From positions 199,891 through 263,890 of the forward strand of contig DIUZ01000024.1 of assembly GCA_002423205.1 (NCBI GenBank): DNA of 64,000 bases. The letters run 5' to 3'. Source of the DNA: Micavibrio sp. UBA6145 (GTDB lineage Bacteria > Pseudomonadota > Alphaproteobacteria > Micavibrionales > UBA1664). The stretch's first letter is position 1. Each line of letters starts with the position of its first letter. Under the pieces are notes generated by a model that ran no database searches, was not told the origin of the DNA, and was given only the letters and a program-made list of their open reading frames with translations. Made by a program: the position numbers and the translations under genes. Of the stretch, positions 10,578 through 59,923 are shown in pieces.

Positions 10578-11309
10578 TTAAGCCGTAGCAGCTTTCTTCT
10601 TGTCGGCCTTGGGCTCGGCTTCGCCGGCCACGTCCGGGTCACGCAGAACGTAACCGCGGCCCCACACCGTTTCGATGTAATTGAGGCCCGAGGAGGCGTC
10701 TTCGAGTTTTTTGCGGAGTTTGCAGATGAACACGTCGATGATCTTGATCTCCGGCTCATCCATCCCGTTGTAGAGGTGGTTGAGGAATGTTTCCTTGGCA
10801 AGGGTCGTGCCTTTGCGCAGGGCCAGGAGTTCGAGAATGCCGTATTCCTTGCCGGTGAGGTGGACAGGCTTGCTGTCGATATCAACCGTGCGGGAGTCGA
10901 GGTTGACGACCAGGCGGTCGCCGACCTTGATCTGGTTCTGGCTGTGACCTTTCGAGCGGCGGATAATGGCCTGAACGCGCGCCATCAGCTCGCGCTTGTC
11001 GAAGGGTTTGGTCAGGTAATCGTCAGCGCCGAAGCCAAGGCCCTTGATCTTGTTGTCGAGTTCGGCAAGGCCGGACAGGATCAGGATCGGGGTTTCGATT
11101 TTCGCGGCGCGAAGTTTTTTCAGGACGTCATAGCCATCCATGTCGGGCAGCATGAGGTCGAGGATGATGATGTCGTATTCGTAAACCTTGCCGAGATCGA
11201 GGCCTTCTTCGCCAAGATCGGTGGTGTCCACGACGTGACCGTCGGATTTGAGCATCATCTCGATGCTCTTGGACATGGAGCTGTCGTCTTCTACGAGCAG
11301 TACGCGCAT
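10578..11309 (-). CDS. ctrA: Cell-cycle/motility response regulator CtrA (OmpR family)
   Basis: [12 protein letters not shown]...[10 protein letters not shown]...[19 protein letters not shown]...[20 protein letters not shown]...[13 protein letters not shown]. Near-colinear pattern match to CtrA as I recall it from Caulobacter. Confidence 0.9.
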
Positions 11310-34462: not shown

Positions 34463-37400
34463 TCAATAGGACTTAAGGTTTTCCTGTGCCGTCTTTGTCC
34501 ATTTTTTTACCATATTTTCTTTACGGCGTAGTGCGGCTATAGCCGCATCCATTTTCCGAAAGGCGCTGGGGTCTTCGTAAAATATCGGACTTGATAAGGC
34601 GGTCATTTTTTCAATTCCCATAAAGCTCAAAACATTTGTTCCGGTTGTGAAAGGTTGGGTGGGAATGCCTGCAGCGTGCGACATGAGACAGGTTGAATGA
34701 AAACCGCTGATGACCAACTTCGCCCCAAGAAGAGTGGCGGTAAATTGTTCTGCCGACTGTGCGTCTATGGTTTCGAAATGGCCGCCAATCAGCTCGGACA
34801 TATCTTTTTCGAGCATCATATCTTCCTGAGATAGGTGCCATTGCGCCCCTTTGAGGAGCGTGGGCTGCAATCCTTGTTCCCGAAGATGCAGGCACAATTT
34901 GGCAAAAACTGGTGCGTAGAATGACGTGTACCCTGGGCCGGCGGTGATGACCGCGGTGTTATGCTTTTCGATTTTCGGTTTAGACTCTAGGTAATCCGAA
35001 AGCCAGAGTAGTGCGGTATCCATACCCAAAGTACATGGAATATTGATTGAACGCAGGATGTCGTAAGATATCTGGTCGCGTACAACGCAGGCATCCAGTT
35101 TTGTGTAAACCTTGTGATAGAAGGCCAGTTTTTGTGGGTCGCTTAGTGAAGGTTTGTCTTCCGGGAAGACTGAATGGTTGATAATGCTGACTTTTTTGCC
35201 AAAAAACTGTTTTGCGATATAAGCAAGATACAGCATATAGAGCGCTGTATCGCTCAGACCGTTCATCATGCTCTCGCCGTTAATTATGATCTGGTCGGAT
35301 TGTTCGATTGCATAGAATAAAGTGGGATTTTTGTAACGCCAGTAAGCCAGAAAACGGCGGTCATCGAAATCCTGTAATGTCGGTTTCCCAACGGGAAACC
35401 AGTTCAGCGCGATCGTGGAAAGATCTTCGACGTCATAATTCTTTTTCTCCAGCACGGACTTTATCCCCTGCATGGACGCATAGTGCCCCCAGGTGAATGC
35501 AGCGCCAGTATCATTGATGAGAAACGCACGTTTTTTCTTTTTACTGTTGGCAGGAAATAAGCGTTGGTATTTGCGCGGGGCTATACAGTTTTTATCGCCT
35601 GCAATAAATTTACGAAACTCTGCGTCGACGCGGACAAACAATTCCGTATAGTCTTTTTGTGTCTGACGGAAAAGGCGCAGGGATTCATACCAAGGCGTGG
35701 CCTCGCCGCTCACTGGCCAGCGCCAAAAAGGTTCCTGCGCGAGGATGGTCCAGCATGGCACGCCCATGGCGCCCGCGGCATGAACAGTTGTGTTGTCGAT
35801 AGATATAATCAAATCGCAGGCTGCAATCTGGTCCATGAATGGTTGCATGGCTGTCCATGAATCGACTTTGTCGTCATGAAAAATATGGAATCCTTTTTCT
35901 GCGGCATCCTTGCGTTCCGCAGATGTGTCGCCGTACTGCAAATCGATTACACGAATATTGTCGTATTTTGCCAAGAAATCGAAATCCATCAATTTCAGGG
36001 AGCGTATATATCCGGCATCGAGGCTTTTTGTGTACCAGGAAATGCCAACCACAAATTCCTTATTGCTGTCTTTCTTGTAATCAAGTGTTTTGTCTTTTTT
36101 CAGGTAATGATCGGTATGAGGTATTTCGTCAATTTCAGTGTTGAAGATGTGTGGCAAGGTTGTTGCTGCGACAAGCAGGTCGATCGTATTGTCGGTATGT
36201 AGAGCGGGATCAAAAAATTCAACCTTGCCGCTTTCGAATATCTCAGGAAAGCTGACAGAGAAGAGCGCTTCCATTTTTTGGTTAACGTTAATGATCAGTT
36301 TTTGTGGCGCGTATCTATTAACGATCTCGGGCACGTATCGCATCATCATGATAATGTCGCCAATGCCCTGATCCGCATAAAACATCAAGGTTTTGTCGCT
36401 GATATCTTCACCATACCAGCGCGGCGTGCTTTCAGGCATGCGCTTGCTGGTTAGTTTTGCCTTGTGCCAATACCATTCCAGTTCAGCAAAAGCTTTTGGA
36501 TATTGTTCCATTTTGAGGGCAGCCACGCCAATGGCGTAATGAACATCCGGTGAAAGCGGGTCAACCGCCAGCGCTTTTTCCAGATCACCTTCCAGGTTTA
36601 AGTATTCTTTTTTGTAGCGATGAATGGTCGACCGATTAAGGTATGGGGCCATCATCAACTTATCGAGACGGGTTGCTTCGTCAAAGCATGCCAATGCTTC
36701 GTCTATGCGGGCATTTCCGAGATAAGACAGGCCAAGATTGCATTTGTATACAGCGCTTTCCGGATCGAGAGCTGCGGCTTTTGCAGAGGCCTCCAGCGCT
36801 TTGTCGAACTGGCGCAGTGCCGTATAAGCACGTTCCAGTGCGGACCATGCTTCCGGCGCTTGGGGGTATTCCTGTGTTGCGTTGAGCGCGACAGTTTCTG
36901 CCCTTTGAAGCTCCTGATTCATGATCAGTGCATCGACATATTGAGCCGTCTGGTTTGGTGTATTTGTCGCCTGGCTCTCGTAAACTTTAATAGCCAGGCC
37001 AGGCTTCAGGGTTTTGACCAGGCTAAGCATCAAAGCTTCGCGATAATCCCCGTCAGCCATGAAGGCTGCTTGGCACACTTCCAGTTCGAGACATTTTAAG
37101 GCGGCGTCGTAATTCTCGACTTTCGAAAACGCTATACCTGCCTTGCGGTATGCGCGTGGATCTTTGGTGATTTGCGCATATTCCAGGTAATGCCCGGCTG
37201 CGTGTATAAGGTCGTTATTTTTGAACGAAATTTCACCAAGGTAATAAAGAGCCTGGGGGGCCGCGCTAAAGTCTTTGATGCTAAGTAACAGGAGGCGTGC
37301 CTGTGTAAATTTTTCCTGCTTAATCAGGTTTACCGCCTGACGCGTGATTTCGTCATTGGGCGAGGGGTCTGTGATGGCGCTGGACGTTTGCTGAGGTAGC

Positions 37401-37975
37401 GAAGTGGCAGTTTGACGATTCTTATCTTGAGGTTTCACGATAAGGTAAAACTCACCGTGAACGCTCTCCGCAAAAGTTACATCCATGACTTCATTCCACT
37501 TGTCCAGCCACCAGGACGGATGTTCGATGATCAGGTGTGCATTTCTTCCGTCAGGAAGACGGTGAACGGCGGGGACGCATGAAATGACTAAAAACGCAGC
37601 TTTCAGCGTACGGTGGGCAATGTCTGCCATTACGTTGTCAAGAAAACTAGGTTCAATATGTTCCATGACATCTGTGCAGATCAGCAGATCGGCCTGATGC
37701 TTATCGTCAGCTTTCTCAGGAATCGCTGGATCGTATTCGTAAAAGGCTACCTCTTTATAAGGAGAATTCGGTTTTTTTTGTTCTTCTCGGAAAAGTGTGC
37801 CGATCGTGCCCTTGCCGCATCCATAGTCCAGAACTGATTTTGCATCTAGTTCGCCAATAAGTTTTAAAACTGTCTGGTAATGTATCTGGCCGGTATTACC
37901 CCAGGTGTTATCATCCTGGTGTTTTTCCTGGAGCTGAGAGCGGTAATCATCGGACAGTGTCTTGGGCTGGGTCAT
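34463..37975 (-). CDS. Four-module protein: SAM methyltransferase + TPR + GT9-like glycosyltransferase + polysaccharide pyruvyl-transferase-like domain
   Basis: Module 1 (aa ~30-180): VLDYGCGKGTIG and DLLICTDVMEHI. Module 2 (aa ~205-500): TPR-like helical repeats. Module 3 (aa ~500-790): ADQGIGDIIMMMRYVP...DLIISIDNTTVHAAGAMGVPCWTIL, a GT9/heptosyltransferase-like pattern. Module 4 (aa ~800-1170): ...LVISGFHSTCLMSHAAGIPTQPF, a pyruvyl-transferase-like pattern. GC spot counts are 38-45%. Confidence 0.6.
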   Translation of the reverse strand: MTQPKTLSDDYRSQLQEKHQDDNTWGNTGQIHYQTVLKLIGELDAKSVLDYGCGKGTIGTLFREEQKKPNSPYKEVAFYEYDPAIPEKADDKHQADLLICTDVMEHIEPSFLDNVMADIAHRTLKAAFLVISCVPAVHRLPDGRNAHLIIEHPSWWLDKWNEVMDVTFAESVHGEFYLIVKPQDKNRQTATSLPQQTSSAITDPSPNDEITRQAVNLIKQEKFTQARLLLLSIKDFSAAPQALYYLGEISFKNNDLIHAAGHYLEYAQITKDPRAYRKAGIAFSKVENYDAALKCLELEVCQAAFMADGDYREALMLSLVKTLKPGLAIKVYESQATNTPNQTAQYVDALIMNQELQRAETVALNATQEYPQAPEAWSALERAYTALRQFDKALEASAKAAALDPESAVYKCNLGLSYLGNARIDEALACFDEATRLDKLMMAPYLNRSTIHRYKKEYLNLEGDLEKALAVDPLSPDVHYAIGVAALKMEQYPKAFAELEWYWHKAKLTSKRMPESTPRWYGEDISDKTLMFYADQGIGDIIMMMRYVPEIVNRYAPQKLIINVNQKMEALFSVSFPEIFESGKVEFFDPALHTDNTIDLLVAATTLPHIFNTEIDEIPHTDHYLKKDKTLDYKKDSNKEFVVGISWYTKSLDAGYIRSLKLMDFDFLAKYDNIRVIDLQYGDTSAERKDAAEKGFHIFHDDKVDSWTAMQPFMDQIAACDLIISIDNTTVHAAGAMGVPCWTILAQEPFWRWPVSGEATPWYESLRLFRQTQKDYTELFVRVDAEFRKFIAGDKNCIAPRKYQRLFPANSKKKKRAFLINDTGAAFTWGHYASMQGIKSVLEKKNYDVEDLSTIALNWFPVGKPTLQDFDDRRFLAYWRYKNPTLFYAIEQSDQIIINGESMMNGLSDTALYMLYLAYIAKQFFGKKVSIINHSVFPEDKPSLSDPQKLAFYHKVYTKLDACVVRDQISYDILRSINIPCTLGMDTALLWLSDYLESKPKIEKHNTAVITAGPGYTSFYAPVFAKLCLHLREQGLQPTLLKGAQWHLSQEDMMLEKDMSELIGGHFETIDAQSAEQFTATLLGAKLVISGFHSTCLMSHAAGIPTQPFTTGTNVLSFMGIEKMTALSSPIFYEDPSAFRKMDAAIAALRRKENMVKKWTKTAQENLKSY

Positions 37976-43609: not shown

Positions 43610-44727
43610 CACAGCACCTCGATTTCGGCCTGGAGGGCACCGGCGGCTTTGATGGCCTGCAGAATGGTGATCACATCGCGCGGGGTTACGCCCAGTGCGT
43701 TGAGGCTTGAGACCAGTTCCTGCAGCGTTACGCCTTCGGGCAGGTAGGCAATATTGGCCTGGTCGTTGTCGCCGGTGATGTCGAGGCTGGTGCGCGGGAC
43801 GACGACGGTATCGCCGTTTTCGCTGAACGGTGCAGGTTGCGACACCTGCGGTGTTTCGGTGATGCGCACGGTCAAATTGCCTTGAGCGACGGCAACGGTG
43901 GAGATGCGCACATCGGCACCCATGACGATCACGCCGGAGCGTTCGTCGATCACGATCTTGGCGACCTGATCCGGCTGGATGGTCAGTTGTTCGACATCGG
44001 TAACCAGATCCACCACGGCCTTACCGGCGGGCGGGGTCAGTTTGACGGATGAATTGTTCTCAACCACGGCGACTTTGGAGCCGTATTGCTGGTTGATGGT
44101 GGCGGCGATGCGGCGCGCGGTCGTAAAGTCAGGATTGCGCAGGCCAAGGCGTACGGACGGCAGGGACGCCAGGTCAAAGCCGATTTCTTTTTCAACAATC
44201 GCGCCGTTGGGGACGCGGCCCGCGGTCGGGGTGTTCTGGGTCACGCCGCCGGCATCGCCGGATGCGGTGAAGCCGGACACGGTCACGGGGCCCTGGGCAA
44301 CAGCATAGACTTCAGAGTCGCCGCCCATAAGCGGGGTGACCAGAAGCGTGCCGCCCTGCAACGACTTGGCATCGCCCAGGGTGGATACGTTGACGTCGAT
44401 ACGGCTGCCCTGATTGGTGAAGGGGGGCAGGGTGGATGTCACCATGACGGCGGCGACGTTGCCGGTGTTCAGGTTCTGGTCGCGGACGTTGACGCCAAGG
44501 CGTTCAAGCATGGCGGTGAGGGATTGTTTGGTGAATGGGGCGTTGCCCAGCTTGTCGCCAGTACCGTTCAGGCCGACAACAAGGCCGTAACCGATCAGCA
44601 TGTTTTCGCGCACGCCTTCGACGTCCACGATGTCCTTGATACGGGACGGACCCTCAGCCGATGCGGTGCCGGCGAAACCGAGACCGAAGAGAGCGATGGC
44701 CGTCAAAGTAAGGGCTTGTATGCGCAT
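43609..44727 (-). CDS. flgI: Flagellar P-ring protein FlgI
   Basis: Signal peptide, then SRIKDIVDVEGVRENMLIGYGLVVGLNGTGD. 372 aa. Confidence 0.95.
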   Translation of the reverse strand: MRIQALTLTAIALFGLGFAGTASAEGPSRIKDIVDVEGVRENMLIGYGLVVGLNGTGDKLGNAPFTKQSLTAMLERLGVNVRDQNLNTGNVAAVMVTSTLPPFTNQGSRIDVNVSTLGDAKSLQGGTLLVTPLMGGDSEVYAVAQGPVTVSGFTASGDAGGVTQNTPTAGRVPNGAIVEKEIGFDLASLPSVRLGLRNPDFTTARRIAATINQQYGSKVAVVENNSSVKLTPPAGKAVVDLVTDVEQLTIQPDQVAKIVIDERSGVIVMGADVRISTVAVAQGNLTVRITETPQVSQPAPFSENGDTVVVPRTSLDITGDNDQANIAYLPEGVTLQELVSSLNALGVTPRDVITILQAIKAAGALQAEIEVL

Positions 44728-44752
44728 GGTATTCCTTTCCGGGAATTACCTT

Positions 44753-44768
44753 TGCGAGAAGCGTGCCA
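44753..44768 (-). promoter_or_regulatory. Sigma-54 promoter of the flgI operon
   Basis: Minus strand reads TGGCAC-gcttc-TCGCA (GG-N10-GC). The -12 element lies ~26 bp upstream of ATG 44727, with a GGAAAGGA Shine-Dalgarno between. Confidence 0.65.
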
Positions 44769-44808
44769 AGTCCGGCCTGCCCACGAGTCGTGGGTATCCC
44801 GGACTTGG
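44766..44808. repeat. Nested inverted repeat: CCAAGTCCGG-4-CCCACGA-g-TCGTGGG-4-CCGGACTTGG
   Basis: Read directly. The centre is a GAGTC site (44785-89). The left arm overlaps the -24 element of the flgI promoter. Confidence 0.75.
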
Positions 44809-44816
44809 TTTGTTGA

Positions 44817-44834
44817 TGCCTGCTATCGCAGGCA
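44817..44834. repeat. Inverted repeat TGCCTGC-tatc-GCAGGCA
   Basis: 7-bp arms read directly. Lies ~50-65 bp upstream of the flgI sigma-54 -24 element. Confidence 0.7.
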
Positions 44835-44836
44835 CC

Positions 44837-44880
44837 CCCCGCATAATATGGCCGCCCCACCAACCCCATATTATGCGGGG
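44837..44880. repeat. Perfect 15-bp-arm inverted repeat CCCCGCATAATATGG-N14-CCATATTATGCGGGG
   Basis: Read directly. Followed by a duplicated GGGGACCCC / GGTGGGG motif (44877-44911) and the fliX ATG at 44945. Confidence 0.8.
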
Positions 44881-44944
44881 ACCCCTATATAAGGTGGGGA
44901 CCCCGGTGGGGTTGTTCTTGAAGTCTTAAGGCTTTGGCCAGACA

Positions 44945-45397
44945 ATGAAGCCCATGAGAATTGAAGGGCCTCGGTCCACTTCCGACGTTAAAAAGTCCGA
45001 CAAGGCCCGCAAATCCGGCGGGACAGGCGGCGCGTTCAGTGCCTTTCTGGATGAAGGCGGGGCGGAAACCGCCCCCCCGGCGCGGGGTGCAGCGCCCATG
45101 GGTGGTATTGGCAATCTTCTCGCCGTGCAGGGTGCGGATGATCCGACCGAGGGCAGAAAACGTAAAAAGATGATGGAGCGGGCGGACAAGGTCCTGACCG
45201 CGCTGGACGGCGTGCACCGGGGGCTGGTGAACGGCGACCTGTCGACCGTCCAGATGGACGAGGTTGGCCGCGCCGTGCGCGAAAACCGCGAAAATATCAA
45301 TGATCCCAGATTGTTGGCGATTCTGGACGAGGTGGATTTGCGGGCCCAGGTGGAGCTTGCCAAGCTCGAAATGGCCCGCGATAAAGCCAAATCATAA
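44945..45397 (+). CDS. fliX: Class II flagellar assembly regulator FliX
   Basis: Divergent from flgI as in Caulobacter. C-terminus DPRLLAILDEVDLRAQVELAKLE matches the FliX family pattern. Confidence 0.75.
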   Translation: MKPMRIEGPRSTSDVKKSDKARKSGGTGGAFSAFLDEGGAETAPPARGAAPMGGIGNLLAVQGADDPTEGRKRKKMMERADKVLTALDGVHRGLVNGDLSTVQMDEVGRAVRENRENINDPRLLAILDEVDLRAQVELAKLEMARDKAKS

Positions 45398-45436
45398 CAA
45401 AGGTTTAGATAAACGGGTGCAAACGCCTTGTTTCGC

Positions 45437-45465
45437 TTGCGGAATCACCCGACCATTTCTATATA
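45437..45465 (+). promoter_or_regulatory. Sigma-70-like promoter upstream of dksA
   Basis: TTGCGG-N17-TATATA, 34 bp upstream of ATG 45499. Confidence 0.3.
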
Positions 45466-45498
45466 TGTTGCCTTGATTCACCAGGGGGTTTTTGACCA

Positions 45499-45933
45499 AT
45501 GACCATGCCAAGCACTGTCACCGTCCCACCGGATTACGATCCGAAAAAGGACAAAGGCAAATTCATGAACCCAATTATGGGTGCCTACTTCAGAAAGAAG
45601 TTGATCGCCTGGCGCACCGAGCTATTGGCCGGATCGGAAGAGACGGTTCATAACACCCTTCAGAGCACCGAACTTCAAAAGCCGGATATTGCCGACCGTG
45701 CCGCCGCTGAAACGGATCACGCGCTGGAACTGCGCACCCGCGACCGTGAGCGCAAGCTGATCGGCAAGATCAACGAAGCGCTGATGCGCATCGATGACGG
45801 CAGCTATGGTTTCTGTGAAGAGACCGGCGAGCCGATCGCCGTGGCCCGCCTGGACGCCCGTCCGACGGCGACACTTTCGCTCGAAGCGCAAGAGAGGCAC
45901 GAGCGTCTGGAAAAAACGCATCGCGACGATTAA
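45499..45933 (+). CDS. dksA: RNA polymerase-binding transcription factor DksA (Cys-depleted variant)
   Basis: Coiled-coil region plus GSYGFCEETGEPIAVARLDARPTATLSLEAQ. Only one of the four canonical zinc-finger cysteines is present. Confidence 0.85.
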   Translation: MTMPSTVTVPPDYDPKKDKGKFMNPIMGAYFRKKLIAWRTELLAGSEETVHNTLQSTELQKPDIADRAAAETDHALELRTRDRERKLIGKINEALMRIDDGSYGFCEETGEPIAVARLDARPTATLSLEAQERHERLEKTHRDD

Positions 45934-46001
45934 TTAAATCTGGCGGCAACGCCGCCGGGGCGACGATTAATTCGCGTTATTTCCTAAGGAATAATCAAAC
46001 C

Positions 46002-46035
46002 AACCCGCACCAGCTTAGGAGGCGGGTTTGTTTTT
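46002..46035 (+). terminator. Rho-independent terminator after dksA
   Basis: Stem ACCCGC/GCGGGT (46003-08 / 46022-27) followed by TTTGTTTTT. Confidence 0.6.
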
Positions 46036-46195
46036 GCCTGAAATTTTTAAACTGCATTTGAGGCGCGTTCTTAAAGTGTTGCTTTAAAGATTTTGATTCA
46101 AAAGTATCACTTTAAAAGTAATGAATCTGAGTCTTTGGTTTAAGAGTGTCGCTTTAAAAGCGATGCTTCTAAAGTTCTGAATCAGTGATTCCGGT
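46036..46195. other. AT-rich, GANTC-dense, TTTAAA-repeat island between two convergent terminators
   Basis: 27% and 38% GC in the two 60-nt lines counted. Five GANTC sites in 97 bp. Five CT(T)TAAA(A)G motifs. Imperfect ~20-bp direct repeat at 46071-89 and 46140-60. Confidence 0.7.
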
Positions 46196-46229
46196 AAACA
46201 AAAAAGACCCCGCTTTTGAGGGCGGGGCC
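46196..46229 (-). terminator. Rho-independent terminator after flgH
   Basis: Stem CCCCGC/GCGGGG (46208-13 / 46222-27), followed on the minus strand by TCTTTTTGTTT. Confidence 0.7.
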
Positions 46230-46297
46230 AAGGCTTTGGGTCCTACTGGAGAAAAAACTTTTGGGTTTGCGCGAGCCGCCACGCCAACCCTCGCGCG

Positions 46298-47056
46298 TTA
46301 GAATGGTGAAATTACGTCCAGAACCTGCTGGCCGTAACGCGGCTGCTGGATGTCGGTGATCTGGCCGCGGCCGCCGTATGAGATGCGGGCTTCGGCAATT
46401 TTTTCGTACGGGATCGTGTTTTCGATCGAGATGTCTTCGGGGCGGATGACGCCGGTGACGTTCAGGACGCGATTTTCGAAGTTCACGCGCACTTCCTGGT
46501 TGCCGGTGATGACCATGTTGCCGTTGGGCAGGATCTGGTTCACGGTCGCGGCGACCTTCAGTTTGATGTCTTCATTGCGTTTGACTTCGCCTTTGCCCGC
46601 GTTGGACGAGGCGGTTTCGCCGCCGATCAGGGCCGCCGGGTTCACGCCGTTCGGGAGGATCTTGTCGAGATAGCCTTCAAATCCAAGAGCGTTGGTCAGG
46701 GCCGAATCTTCGGTTGCGCTGCGGTCGCGCTTGGTTTCGTTCTTCATGTTGGCTTCATCGGCGATGTCGATGTTCACGGTCAGGATGTCACCGATATCCT
46801 TGGCGCGCTGGTCCTTGAAGAATGTTTTGCGGCTGCCCCCGGCCCAGAGCGAGTTGGGCTGGCGTTCGGTGAGTTCGGGCGCCGGCATCGGCATGCTGAC
46901 CGGGCGGTAACCGGGTACGGCGGTCGGGTTCTGGATGGCGGACTGGCGCGGAACTTCGCCAATGCTGGCCAGGCGGTCGACGGCGTTGCAGGCGCTTAAA
47001 GACAGGGCCGTCAGGGTGCCGAGGGTCAGAAGTTTGAATGTTTTCAGGTGTTTCAT
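46298..47056 (-). CDS. flgH: Flagellar L-ring lipoprotein FlgH
   Basis: ORF trimmed to ATG 47056 (GAGGA Shine-Dalgarno upstream). Lipobox LSLSAC. Typical FlgH C-terminal two thirds. Confidence 0.9.
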   Translation of the reverse strand: MKHLKTFKLLTLGTLTALSLSACNAVDRLASIGEVPRQSAIQNPTAVPGYRPVSMPMPAPELTERQPNSLWAGGSRKTFFKDQRAKDIGDILTVNIDIADEANMKNETKRDRSATEDSALTNALGFEGYLDKILPNGVNPAALIGGETASSNAGKGEVKRNEDIKLKVAATVNQILPNGNMVITGNQEVRVNFENRVLNVTGVIRPEDISIENTIPYEKIAEARISYGGRGQITDIQQPRYGQQVLDVISPF

Positions 47057-47067
47057 AGCGCACATCC

Positions 47068-48072
47068 TCAATTAACGGTGATTTGTTTGGTCCCGGTCAC
47101 ACGTCCCTCGATCGTGCGGTTGGACCCTGAATTGGAGACTTTGATGCTCTGGCCCATGGCGCCGTCTTCGAGGGCGCGGCCCTTGGTAGTCAGGCGCATG
47201 CCGTTATTGTCGAACACCATGGTCACCATTTCACCGCGCGATACCATTTGGGGCATCTGAAGGTCGTTCGGGCTGATCACCACACCGGCGGCAATAGCGC
47301 GGCGGGGGGTGGAACCGATCATTTCGCCGGCGCTCTGGATCACGTTCGGACCAACGGTCGATGCCTTGCGGGTGACATAGGCGATATCGTTCTGGTTGAT
47401 GACTTCGCCGTTGCGCTTGTCCTTTTTAAGGACGGGGACGCTGACGACGCGCTCGGCGACGCCGCGGACATTGACGGTCTGCTGGTTTTTGCCGTCGGCA
47501 TCCGACACCTTGATGATGGCCGAATATGTGCCGCCAACCGGCTGCATGTTGAAGTCGGTGACATCGACGCGCGGGGTGCCGTTATTGGGGATGATGATCT
47601 GCGGCACCTCGGATGTGACGCTGATATTGTACATCGCGGGGTCGCCTGATTCTGTCAAATGATCACGCAGGATCGATTTGATCGTGCCGCTATCCACGAT
47701 CGACGCGTCGCGGCGGATACGGACCTGATCGTCACCCTGCGGACGCCACGGCATATCAAAGGCCGTGGCAATGCGCAGCAATGTGGCCGAATTCCAGACC
47801 AGTTCTTCACCCGGTTGCGGGGCGGGGGCGAGGACGAATTCCGCGTTTTGCGACACGCCTTCGAAAACATCGCCCAGGGTGACGTTATGCCCTTTGACCG
47901 CAACATCGGCACGCGGCACGGGGTTGAGCGGGCCCGCGAACGCCTTGTTCGCACCGCAAATCACGATACCAGCCACGACCGTGAGGGCGAGGATGATCAC
48001 CAGAAGCTTGCCGGCCAGATGGGCGGAAAGCTCGTTGGGATTTGTGCGTTTGAACGTGGCGGTGGCGGTCAT
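47068..48072 (-). CDS. flgA: P-ring assembly chaperone FlgA (long form)
   Basis: C-terminal SAF-type region VSRGEMVTMVFDNNGMRLTTKGRALEDGAMGQSIKVSNSGSNRTIEGRV. 334 aa. Confidence 0.7.
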   Translation of the reverse strand: MTATATFKRTNPNELSAHLAGKLLVIILALTVVAGIVICGANKAFAGPLNPVPRADVAVKGHNVTLGDVFEGVSQNAEFVLAPAPQPGEELVWNSATLLRIATAFDMPWRPQGDDQVRIRRDASIVDSGTIKSILRDHLTESGDPAMYNISVTSEVPQIIIPNNGTPRVDVTDFNMQPVGGTYSAIIKVSDADGKNQQTVNVRGVAERVVSVPVLKKDKRNGEVINQNDIAYVTRKASTVGPNVIQSAGEMIGSTPRRAIAAGVVISPNDLQMPQMVSRGEMVTMVFDNNGMRLTTKGRALEDGAMGQSIKVSNSGSNRTIEGRVTGTKQITVN

Positions 48073-59191: not shown

Positions 59192-59809
59192 TCAGTCTTT
59201 TACAGTGTAGCGGGTCATGAAGGTTTTAATGGCTTCGTCGACCACGGCCTCGCGGTAACCGGCGGGGGCGGCGTCGCTCATCCCGAACAGGCGGGGCCAG
59301 AGAATGGCGTCGGTGATCATGCCGAAGAACTGCCGCGCGGCGACGTTACGGTCGGTGATCAGCCAGTACCGCTGTTCGACACCCTGATCCAGAACATCGT
59401 TCAGGCGGTTGATGAAGGGTTTGCGCCATGCGTCGTTGACGGCCTGGCCCAGACCTTCGGCTTTGTCTTTGAGCAGAATGCCCATACGGATCAGCCCCAG
59501 CAGCATGGGGTTATCCAGACGGCGGGCATAGGACAGGCCGATGGACCGCAAGGCATCAGACACAGGCAGGGTGTTTCTGGCGGTGGTTTCGTCGCGCATC
59601 TTGGCCAGCACGTCGATGGCACCGGCAAGCAACGCCTCTTTCTGCGGGTAGTGCGAGAAGAGGGTGGCGGTAGAGACCTTGGCCGCCTTGGCGATGTCTT
59701 TCAGGGCGACTTCTTCGAAGCCGCGCTCCACGAATAAACCGAGTGCGGCATTTAGAATTTTCTCACGGCTTTTTTCGGCGCGTGCGGCCTGAAATTCAGG
59801 ATTGCTCAT
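59192..59809 (-). CDS. TetR family transcriptional regulator
   Basis: ORF trimmed to ATG 59809. N-terminal HTH REKILNAALGLFVERGFEEVALKDIAKAAKVSTATLFSHYPQKE. Confidence 0.8.
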   Translation of the reverse strand: MSNPEFQAARAEKSREKILNAALGLFVERGFEEVALKDIAKAAKVSTATLFSHYPQKEALLAGAIDVLAKMRDETTARNTLPVSDALRSIGLSYARRLDNPMLLGLIRMGILLKDKAEGLGQAVNDAWRKPFINRLNDVLDQGVEQRYWLITDRNVAARQFFGMITDAILWPRLFGMSDAAPAGYREAVVDEAIKTFMTRYTVKD

Positions 59810-59876
59810 GCCTTTGTTTTTACAGGAAAGTTTATACCAAGTCGAGGGACTTGTTTTTGTTGGTGGCACGAGTCCG

Positions 59877-59900
59877 AAAACGGCGGAAATCCGCCGTTTC
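59877..59900 (-). terminator. Terminator after fliP
   Basis: Stem AACGGCGG/CCGCCGTT with a 4-nt loop, followed on the minus strand by TTCGG (U-run of 4 including the stem end). Confidence 0.5.
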
Positions 59901-59923
59901 ACGTGAGTCACGAAAGGGAAAAA

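Follow-up and report, generated by a model that had tools for sequence, protein, structure and literature searches.

The spacer between the dksA and flgH genes of the window, by which we mean the whole 64-kb stretch of DNA that was analyzed, contains a real, conserved, and clade-restricted noncoding element of clear architecture: some ten degenerate units of 14 nt run in phase from 46061 to 46200, between two intrinsic terminators that face inward. This 14-nt periodic array is the key anatomy of the island (46036-46195) and is new in the present analysis; an earlier note on this DNA had seen a repeat and the words that recur in it but missed the periodicity. The island is found at the equivalent slot in three further lineages, here called L072, L064, and L056/65/66, and the cores of its units are constrained across them. 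The best explanation that we can offer, which we hold tentatively and at somewhat less than even odds, is that the island works at the level of DNA as a phased array of short protein-binding sites with CcrM targets interleaved.

The window represents a flagellar supercluster of a Micavibrio-related alphaproteobacterium, the FlgH of which is 60% identical to that of M. aeruginosavorus and 72% identical to that of the nearest GTDB species representative. Pfam scans of the window identified fliI, flhF, flhA, a sigma-54 activator, motA, fliN/G/F, flagellin, flbT, and flaF as well as flgE/D, fliK, and flgI. The order around the island is fliX, dksA, island, flgH, and past flgH lie flgA, flgG, flgF, fliL, fliM, cheY/Z, motB, fliP, and flgB/C/fliE. 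GC skew is flat at about +0.09 over the whole 64 kb, the plus strand being the G-rich leading strand throughout. Elsewhere in the window, the gene at 34463-37975 (minus strand) encodes a protein of 1170 aa that has TPR repeats and a polysaccharide pyruvyl-transferase domain and that weakly matches a methyltransferase; it adjoins a 587-aa flagellin and flbT/flaF, has a third-position GC of 0.52 versus about 0.72 in its neighbors, and may be a horizontally acquired flagellin-modification gene. An OmpR-type response regulator (10578-11309, minus strand) adjoins the flagellar supercluster and a TetR-family regulator (59192-59911, minus strand) is encoded within it, and either could be a candidate cluster-specific DNA-binding protein. 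The features of the island and its flanks are the following:

44945-45397, plus strand: fliX, 5' of dksA.
45499-45933, plus strand: dksA (144 aa), the left neighbor, pointing at the island (Pfam DksA_N and zf-dskA_traR).
45997-46040, plus strand: T1, the intrinsic terminator of dksA, a GC stem followed by TTTGTTTTTG (arms 45997-46008 and 46022-46033; terminator scan match 46020-46040).
46061, 46075, 46089, 46103, 46117, 46131, 46145, 46159, 46173, and 46187, no strand: in-phase unit starts of the array (repeat family D1 with spacings 14/28/28/14, autocorrelation, and unit stacks).
46068-46130, no strand: clade-conserved core block, units u1-u4 in the order A-B-A-B (gap-free alignment of six sequences, 38 of 63 columns invariant).
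46095-46127, plus strand: central hairpin H2, containing both clade-conserved GANTC sites, 46095 and 46123 (pairing across lineages).
46129-46133, no strand: GAGTC, a lineage-specific GANTC present in the window and L072 only (sequence comparison).
46139-46173, no strand: local imperfect palindrome TTTAAGAGTGTCGCTTT / AAAGCGATGCTTCTAAA in units u5-u7, lineage-specific and partly broken in L072.
46179-46191, no strand: GAATCAGTGATTC, a small palindrome that holds two GANTC sites; the first reads GATTC in L072, which keeps the site and breaks the palindrome.
46196-46229, minus strand: T2, the intrinsic terminator of flgH, GGCCCCGC...GCGGGGTC followed by TTTTTTGTTT (terminator scan match 46229-46206).
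46298-47071, minus strand: flgH, encoding the L-ring protein, the right neighbor, pointing at the island (Pfam FlgH).

The GC content of the island is 34.4% compared with 56.9% for the window, so that the AT-richness reported earlier holds, whereas the surroundings of 60-68% GC given with it were somewhat overstated: local 100-bp windows range from 45% to 77%. The five GANTC sites described there begin exactly at 46095, 46123, 46129, 46179, and 46187. GANTC occurs 139 times in the 64 kb, never more than twice per 100 bp outside the island, and is under-represented across the window with an observed-to-expected ratio of 0.58 under base composition and 0.81 under a Markov model. Shuffling the island 20,000 times with dinucleotides preserved gave a mean of 0.54 sites and a probability of 5e-5 for five or more; the density, which the earlier note had wanted compared with expectation for AT-rich DNA, is thus above chance for the local composition. 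The stretch upstream of dksA at 45440-45490, where two GANTC (GGAATCA and TTGATTCA) lie about 35 bp apart, is among the few other spots in the window with two such sites inside 100 bp. Five CT(T)TAAA(A)G words, previously placed correctly to within 1 nt, start at 46070, 46082, 46110, 46152, and 46169. The direct repeat of 20 bp that had been described as 69 bp apart is real, but its spacing is 70 bp, that is, five times 14, and its copies are two members of the longer array. Two independent metagenome contigs of the same species (L053 and L054) carry a spacer identical to that of the window, and the island is therefore not an assembly artifact.

The units follow the consensus AG-nnnnn-G(C/A)WTYAAA and are of two alternating kinds: A units have the palindrome CTTTAAA(A)G at their end, and B units hold TTGAnTCAAA with a GANTC site. 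Autocorrelation has its maxima at lags of 14, 28, and 42 nt in the window and in every homologue, and the 14-nt periodicity has P of at most 2e-4 against the best lag of shuffled sequences, which corrects for all lags. Tandem Repeats Finder does not call the array, the units being too degenerate. The palindromic cores also make the array an imperfect long inverted repeat.

Both ends of the island are closed by transcription terminators, as had been proposed: a scan finds a hairpin and a T-run facing inward at each flank. A T1 hairpin with its T-run is present at the equivalent place in L072, L064, and L056/65/66 with differing stem sequences, and T2 is almost identical across all lineages with the island. 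The claim that no open reading frame explains the island likewise stands, in that none of 30 aa or more lies inside it and two ORFs of 37-38 aa only overlap the flgH terminator. We rejected a small-ORF reading: a 19-aa ORF beginning with the ATG in AATGAATC lacks its start codon in L064 and L056. A sigma-70 scan of 45300-46500 found no promoter, and in the promoter and terminator scans the island has neither a promoter nor a terminator of its own. Just 3' of dksA, the window has two copies of an exact 13-nt direct repeat, GCGACGATTAATT (45923-45972), the first of which includes the dksA stop codon, and a 24-nt GC-rich hairpin, GGCGGCAACGCCGCC, lies between them; 37 bp of this region are missing in L072, L064, and L056, which makes this a species-specific micro-insertion or duplication.

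Homologues were collected from relatives of FlgH, DksA, and FliX and from one DNA-pattern scan of metagenomes. L056, L065 (identical to L067), and L066 are three strains that are 97-98% identical to one another, and the six distinct aligned sequences therefore amount to effectively four lineages. Model R1 scores 83-91 bits in every lineage that has the island. Judged by protein identities, which are 67-70% and 96% for FliX inside the group versus 51-62% to others and 88-91% for FlgI versus 80-84%, the window, L072, L064, and L056/65/66 form one small clade of uncultured Micavibrio-like bacteria. The synteny of flgH with dksA-fliX is widespread among 52 GTDB species representatives identified through FlgH, and the island is absent from all of them; their slots hold unrelated ORFs or the terminators alone. 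In the sister lineages L001, L057, L059, L068, L071, and L062 the slot is occupied by a fast-evolving gene, orfX, of about 152-162 aa without a Pfam domain, which has the sense of dksA (plus) and is bounded by the same two terminators. The distribution of orfX and the lack of the island in relatives indicate that the island is a shared derived character of one small clade in which it replaced orfX. It does not appear to be a decayed remnant of that gene, as tblastn with the sister orfX proteins gave no match in 46036-46200. The dksA-flgH slot is variable in L001, L002, L005, L006, L019, L027/L028, L057, L059, L068, and L071, which are Micavibrio-like and other alphaproteobacteria: it contains the orfX family of about 155 aa, two small ORFs, an insert of 1.0-1.4 kb (L019 and L027/L028), or Cys-rich ORFs of 130-158 aa with a hydrophobic N-terminus that are likely secreted. 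The contigs L055 and L073 from one sample (JGI 3300053730), which come from a relative with an 81% identical FlgH, end on either side of the slot, and the L064 contig ends just beyond T2 (L064 position 21); assembly across the slot may be difficult in certain relatives.

A slot of such variable content, near which several contigs break, could also have received one copy of a dispersed palindromic repeat of the MITE, REP, or ERIC kind or kept the scar of a mobile element, and an imperfect palindrome of 100-140 bp in a spacer between two 3' ends would be in the usual home of such repeats. We disfavor this reading and consider it very unlikely on the comparisons made. Model R1 finds no second copy of the array in the 64-kb window and 21 related loci (about 185 kb), the pattern scan of metagenomes returned the orthologous L064 locus and one chance hit, and the island has no match among plasmids, phages, and viral contigs, for which reason a mobile or phage origin was rejected. 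The chance hit, L063, lies in an unrelated AT-rich context. The island moreover has neither terminal inverted repeats nor target duplications, and it has stayed at the orthologous position in lineages between which about 40% of four-fold sites differ.

Substitutions within the units are unevenly distributed. Positions 3-7 of the unit are variable in 17 of 20 columns, whereas the other positions are variable in only 5 of 36 (Fisher 2e-7), and invariant G and C bases are among the constrained ones. Orthologous units are 84% identical and paralogous units 64%, which excludes concerted evolution. Between the window and L064 identity is 77% over 93 nt of the island versus 60% at four-fold degenerate sites of the flanking genes. 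Among L056, L065, and L066, 10-14% of island positions differ compared with about 5% of nearby third codon positions, and all differences (L065 1274-1388) fall between cores, T1 and T2 being free of them; the stretches that separate the cores are thus unconstrained or even fast-evolving. The substitution rate between cores in this group seems above neutral. Together these patterns point to purifying selection on the array cores. Conservation in relatives, one of the checks suggested in the earlier note, has accordingly been found: the island is kept with phase-specific constraint in four lineages of one clade, which argues that it is not junk.

These patterns also bear on the idea that the island is a functionless remnant of a tandem repeat, in which a 14-bp unit would have been expanded by slippage upon the loss of orfX and the likeness between lineages would reflect ancestry together with slow mutation of A and T. 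Consistent with slippage, the length of the array shifts by whole 14-bp units between lineages, and a remnant of this kind would fit the restriction to one small clade in place of a gene, the degeneracy evident from the missing Tandem Repeats Finder call, and the lack of a match to any known motif. However, ancestry and slippage sit poorly with the strength of the unit-phased rate differences and the invariance of G/C positions, with orthologous units that are more alike than paralogous ones, with an island conserved above four-fold sites at about 77% genomic identity, and with an A-B-A-B unit order that is kept in all lineages. On this comparative evidence a functionless remnant is disfavored, and we regard it as unlikely.

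Only two of the five GANTC sites are clade-wide, namely those in u2 (GATTC) and u4 (GAATC). L072 has six, as it keeps all five of the window and gained one (GAGTC, L072 1910-1914) through substitutions in a variable segment (AGTGTCG to AGTCATG), whereas L064 and L056/65/66 keep only those in u2 and u4, with one more in L064 upstream of the array. At one site GAATC changed to GATTC in L072, by which the small palindrome was broken and GANTC was kept. The comparison hints that GANTC sites are accumulating in the lineage of the window and L072. GANTC methylation and a CcrM homologue have been reported for a Micavibrionaceae genome (MAG) (PMC9296519). The GANTC cluster of the island lies outside promoters, downstream of both neighboring genes and between their terminators.

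Among the options offered in the earlier note, a small RNA, a binding array, and a methylation-sensitive element, the data lean to the DNA-level ones, while the small RNA is kept alive by H2 and the plus-strand bias. The lean rests on the palindromic words, on the GANTC site that was kept despite a change of its central base, on the inward-facing terminators, and on the lack of an own promoter and terminator. Palindromic conserved words such as CTTTAAAG and TTGAnTCAA are as expected for dimeric DNA binders or methyltransferase targets. The AT-rich cores of the array, each with a central T-A step (CTTTAAA(A)G), recur every 14 bp in alternation with the CcrM-target cores TTGAnTCAAA. In the mechanism that we propose, the array would be coated by an oligomeric protein with a preference for AT-rich DNA that contains T-A steps. 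Candidate binders would be a protein of the MucR/Ros type or another nucleoid-associated protein, and GapR might be added, the site being AT-rich and set between converging genes. Occupancy of the array and methylation of GANTC would influence each other, as in MucR-shielded GANTC clusters, the two inward terminators would stop RNA polymerase from sweeping the complex off, and within the flagellar cluster the complex could form a barrier, structural or topological, or set an epigenetic mark. The anatomy of the array, its conservation, the constraint on its cores, and its place between two terminators are observed, and we infer the protein binding, the identity of the binder, any link to methylation, and the biological output. 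Several observations weigh against the DNA-level explanation. MucR, GapR, and H-NS-like proteins are low in sequence specificity and would not obviously need invariant flanking G/C or a strict 14-bp period, which does not correspond to a whole number of helical turns. The GANTC clusters known to be shielded by MucR are in promoters and the array is between terminators, and three of the five GANTC sites are not clade-wide.

Further evidence against a DNA-level element fits the main rival reading, a structured RNA transcribed from the plus strand, which we consider possible but doubtful: either a small RNA or a 3' extension of dksA that would arise by read-through of T1 and end at the T2 hairpin. 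Such an RNA would display the repeated CUUUAAAAG words in or between hairpins and might be a stability element or a decoy for an RNA-binding protein; flbT and flaF are 12 kb away in the same cluster. The plus strand folds better than the minus strand by 2-14 kcal/mol in all six sequences, and 93% of cells are paired in the plus-strand consensus fold, the covariation score of which was reached by none of 500 shuffles versus 203 of 500 for the minus strand. In H2, where GATTCA (46095-46100) pairs with TGAATC (46122-46127) and 46104-46107 with 46118-46121, 96.7% of cells are paired compared with 20-43% in slid controls, and two pairs have changed on both sides (A-U to G-C and U-A to C-G). The L056 group forms a hairpin of 44 pairs that has 5 non-pairs in the plus strand versus 17 in the minus strand and that exceeds counterparts with shuffled spacers in stability by a wide margin (z -2.8 to -4.5); G.U cells number 16 in this group and A.C cells 4. 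Judged by eye and uncounted, most substitutions in the variable segments seem to be transitions, as in RNA stems. In the sister lineages the slot is transcribed in the plus sense, and its gene, orfX, ends at the same hairpin.

However, a strong conserved T1 stands directly upstream, a conserved promoter would have no space, and T2 lacks a U-tract when read in the plus sense. The covariation term of RNAalifold is about zero or positive, minimum-energy folds vary by lineage, H2 is not the minimum-energy fold in L064, and support for the long hairpin is no more than marginal in the window, L072, and L064 (p 0.03-0.06). Four effective lineages give the comparison of DNA and RNA little power. Palindromic cores and GU-rich spacers pair by construction, a G-rich leading plus strand (skew about +0.09) is biased toward G.U, and the cores are invariant in sequence rather than covarying. 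There is no Rfam match, and the flagellin 5' leader lacks the core motif. An RNA of this kind, if it is one, would represent a new family with an unusual repeat design.

The searches against known elements were as follows. Rfam 15 covariance models run over 44500-47500 at permissive thresholds gave weak matches only (17-22 bits versus gathering thresholds of 41-95), and those touching the spacer were carried by the T1 and T2 hairpins, none aligning to the array. A CtrA site was rejected, as the six islands contain neither a TTAA-N7-TTAA box nor a TTAACCAT half-site and their TTAA spacing is N9-N10. Consensus sites for IHF, sigma-54, sigma-28, alphaproteobacterial LexA, FNR/FixK, and the Irr ICE gave no match that is conserved across lineages; a sigma-28-like match at 46171-46197, seen by eye, is present in the window only. 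The best matches to the DnaA box and to parS had 2-3 and 6-7 mismatches, respectively. A replication origin, terminus, or dif site was rejected because there is no GC-skew switch and no DnaA box and because the island is missing from the slot in sister genomes. A link to the flagellin 5' leader, a possible FlbT target, was also dismissed, as it shares no core motif with the array. By sequence comparison, the array matches no known element or family among those searched.

If the array is bound by protein as we favor, it would be a compact natural case of phased sites interleaved with CcrM sites, outside any promoter and insulated by terminators in the flagellar supercluster of a little-studied predatory lineage, and a connection of methylation with nucleoid proteins that is known from Caulobacter promoters would then hold for a structural intergenic element as well. 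A bolder conjecture, which as a whole we find improbable, is that a dedicated, terminator-insulated nucleoprotein or epigenetic device replaced a protein-coding gene of the flagellar cluster, with a sequence-specific oligomer that reads the 14-bp-spaced cores and whose occupancy is coupled to cell-cycle GANTC methylation, or, alternatively, that the array is a 14-nt-periodic decoy RNA for a post-transcriptional regulator of flagella such as FlbT. The device, if it exists, would provide flagellar biogenesis in a predatory bacterium with a mark that is heritable or timed by the cell cycle. With uncultured organisms and a small clade, the impact for now is modest; the six aligned sequences and the covariance model provide a concrete handle for testing.

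Among known systems, the MucR protein of Caulobacter and Sinorhizobium keeps CcrM off clustered GANTC sites (PMC5172544), and the array resembles these MucR-shielded clusters in being AT-rich noncoding alphaproteobacterial DNA with several close GANTC sites (P169 has four). Ros/MucR proteins form higher oligomers and have an AT-rich core site of 5 bp in which a T-A step is central (PMC5693944); the repeated AT-rich words of the array with their T-A steps match this definition of the site. Unlike the array, which lies between terminators and has a 14-bp period and invariant flanking G/C, the MucR clusters are promoters without a reported strict periodicity. GapR is enriched both on AT-rich DNA and in the intervals between convergent transcription units (PMC13408042), and its sites in Caulobacter are like the island an AT-rich spacer between converging units (PMC13408042, PMC8360656). 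However, GapR has no sequence motif that determines its binding and leaves the cores, the period, and the GANTC sites unexplained.

The array also resembles the Lrp/Dam system of the pap operon, in which several AT-rich protein sites, some with methyltransferase targets, correspond to the predicted binding sites of the array. At pap, Dam methylates GATC, the sites are spaced about three helical turns apart in a promoter, and phase variation is controlled; the array has no evident regulated promoter adjacent to it, and the methyltransferase differs. Iteron and centromere-like direct-repeat arrays (ParR parC, TubR tubC, and omega heptads) share with it short head-to-tail repeats of fixed period and variable copy number as well as flanking insulation from transcription. 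Unlike them, it is chromosomal, lies in a flagellar cluster, and has no rep or par gene nearby, and a 14-bp period is untypical of such arrays. ERIC and Correia elements and sponge small RNAs such as CrcZ and RsmZ are alike in having a long imperfect hairpin in a spacer between 3' ends or a short motif that is repeated often, but the array is single-copy as far as searched, its motif and period are dissimilar, and it has no Rfam match. Among the known kinds, the array is best filed with protein-binding and methylation-site arrays or with intergenic palindromic elements.
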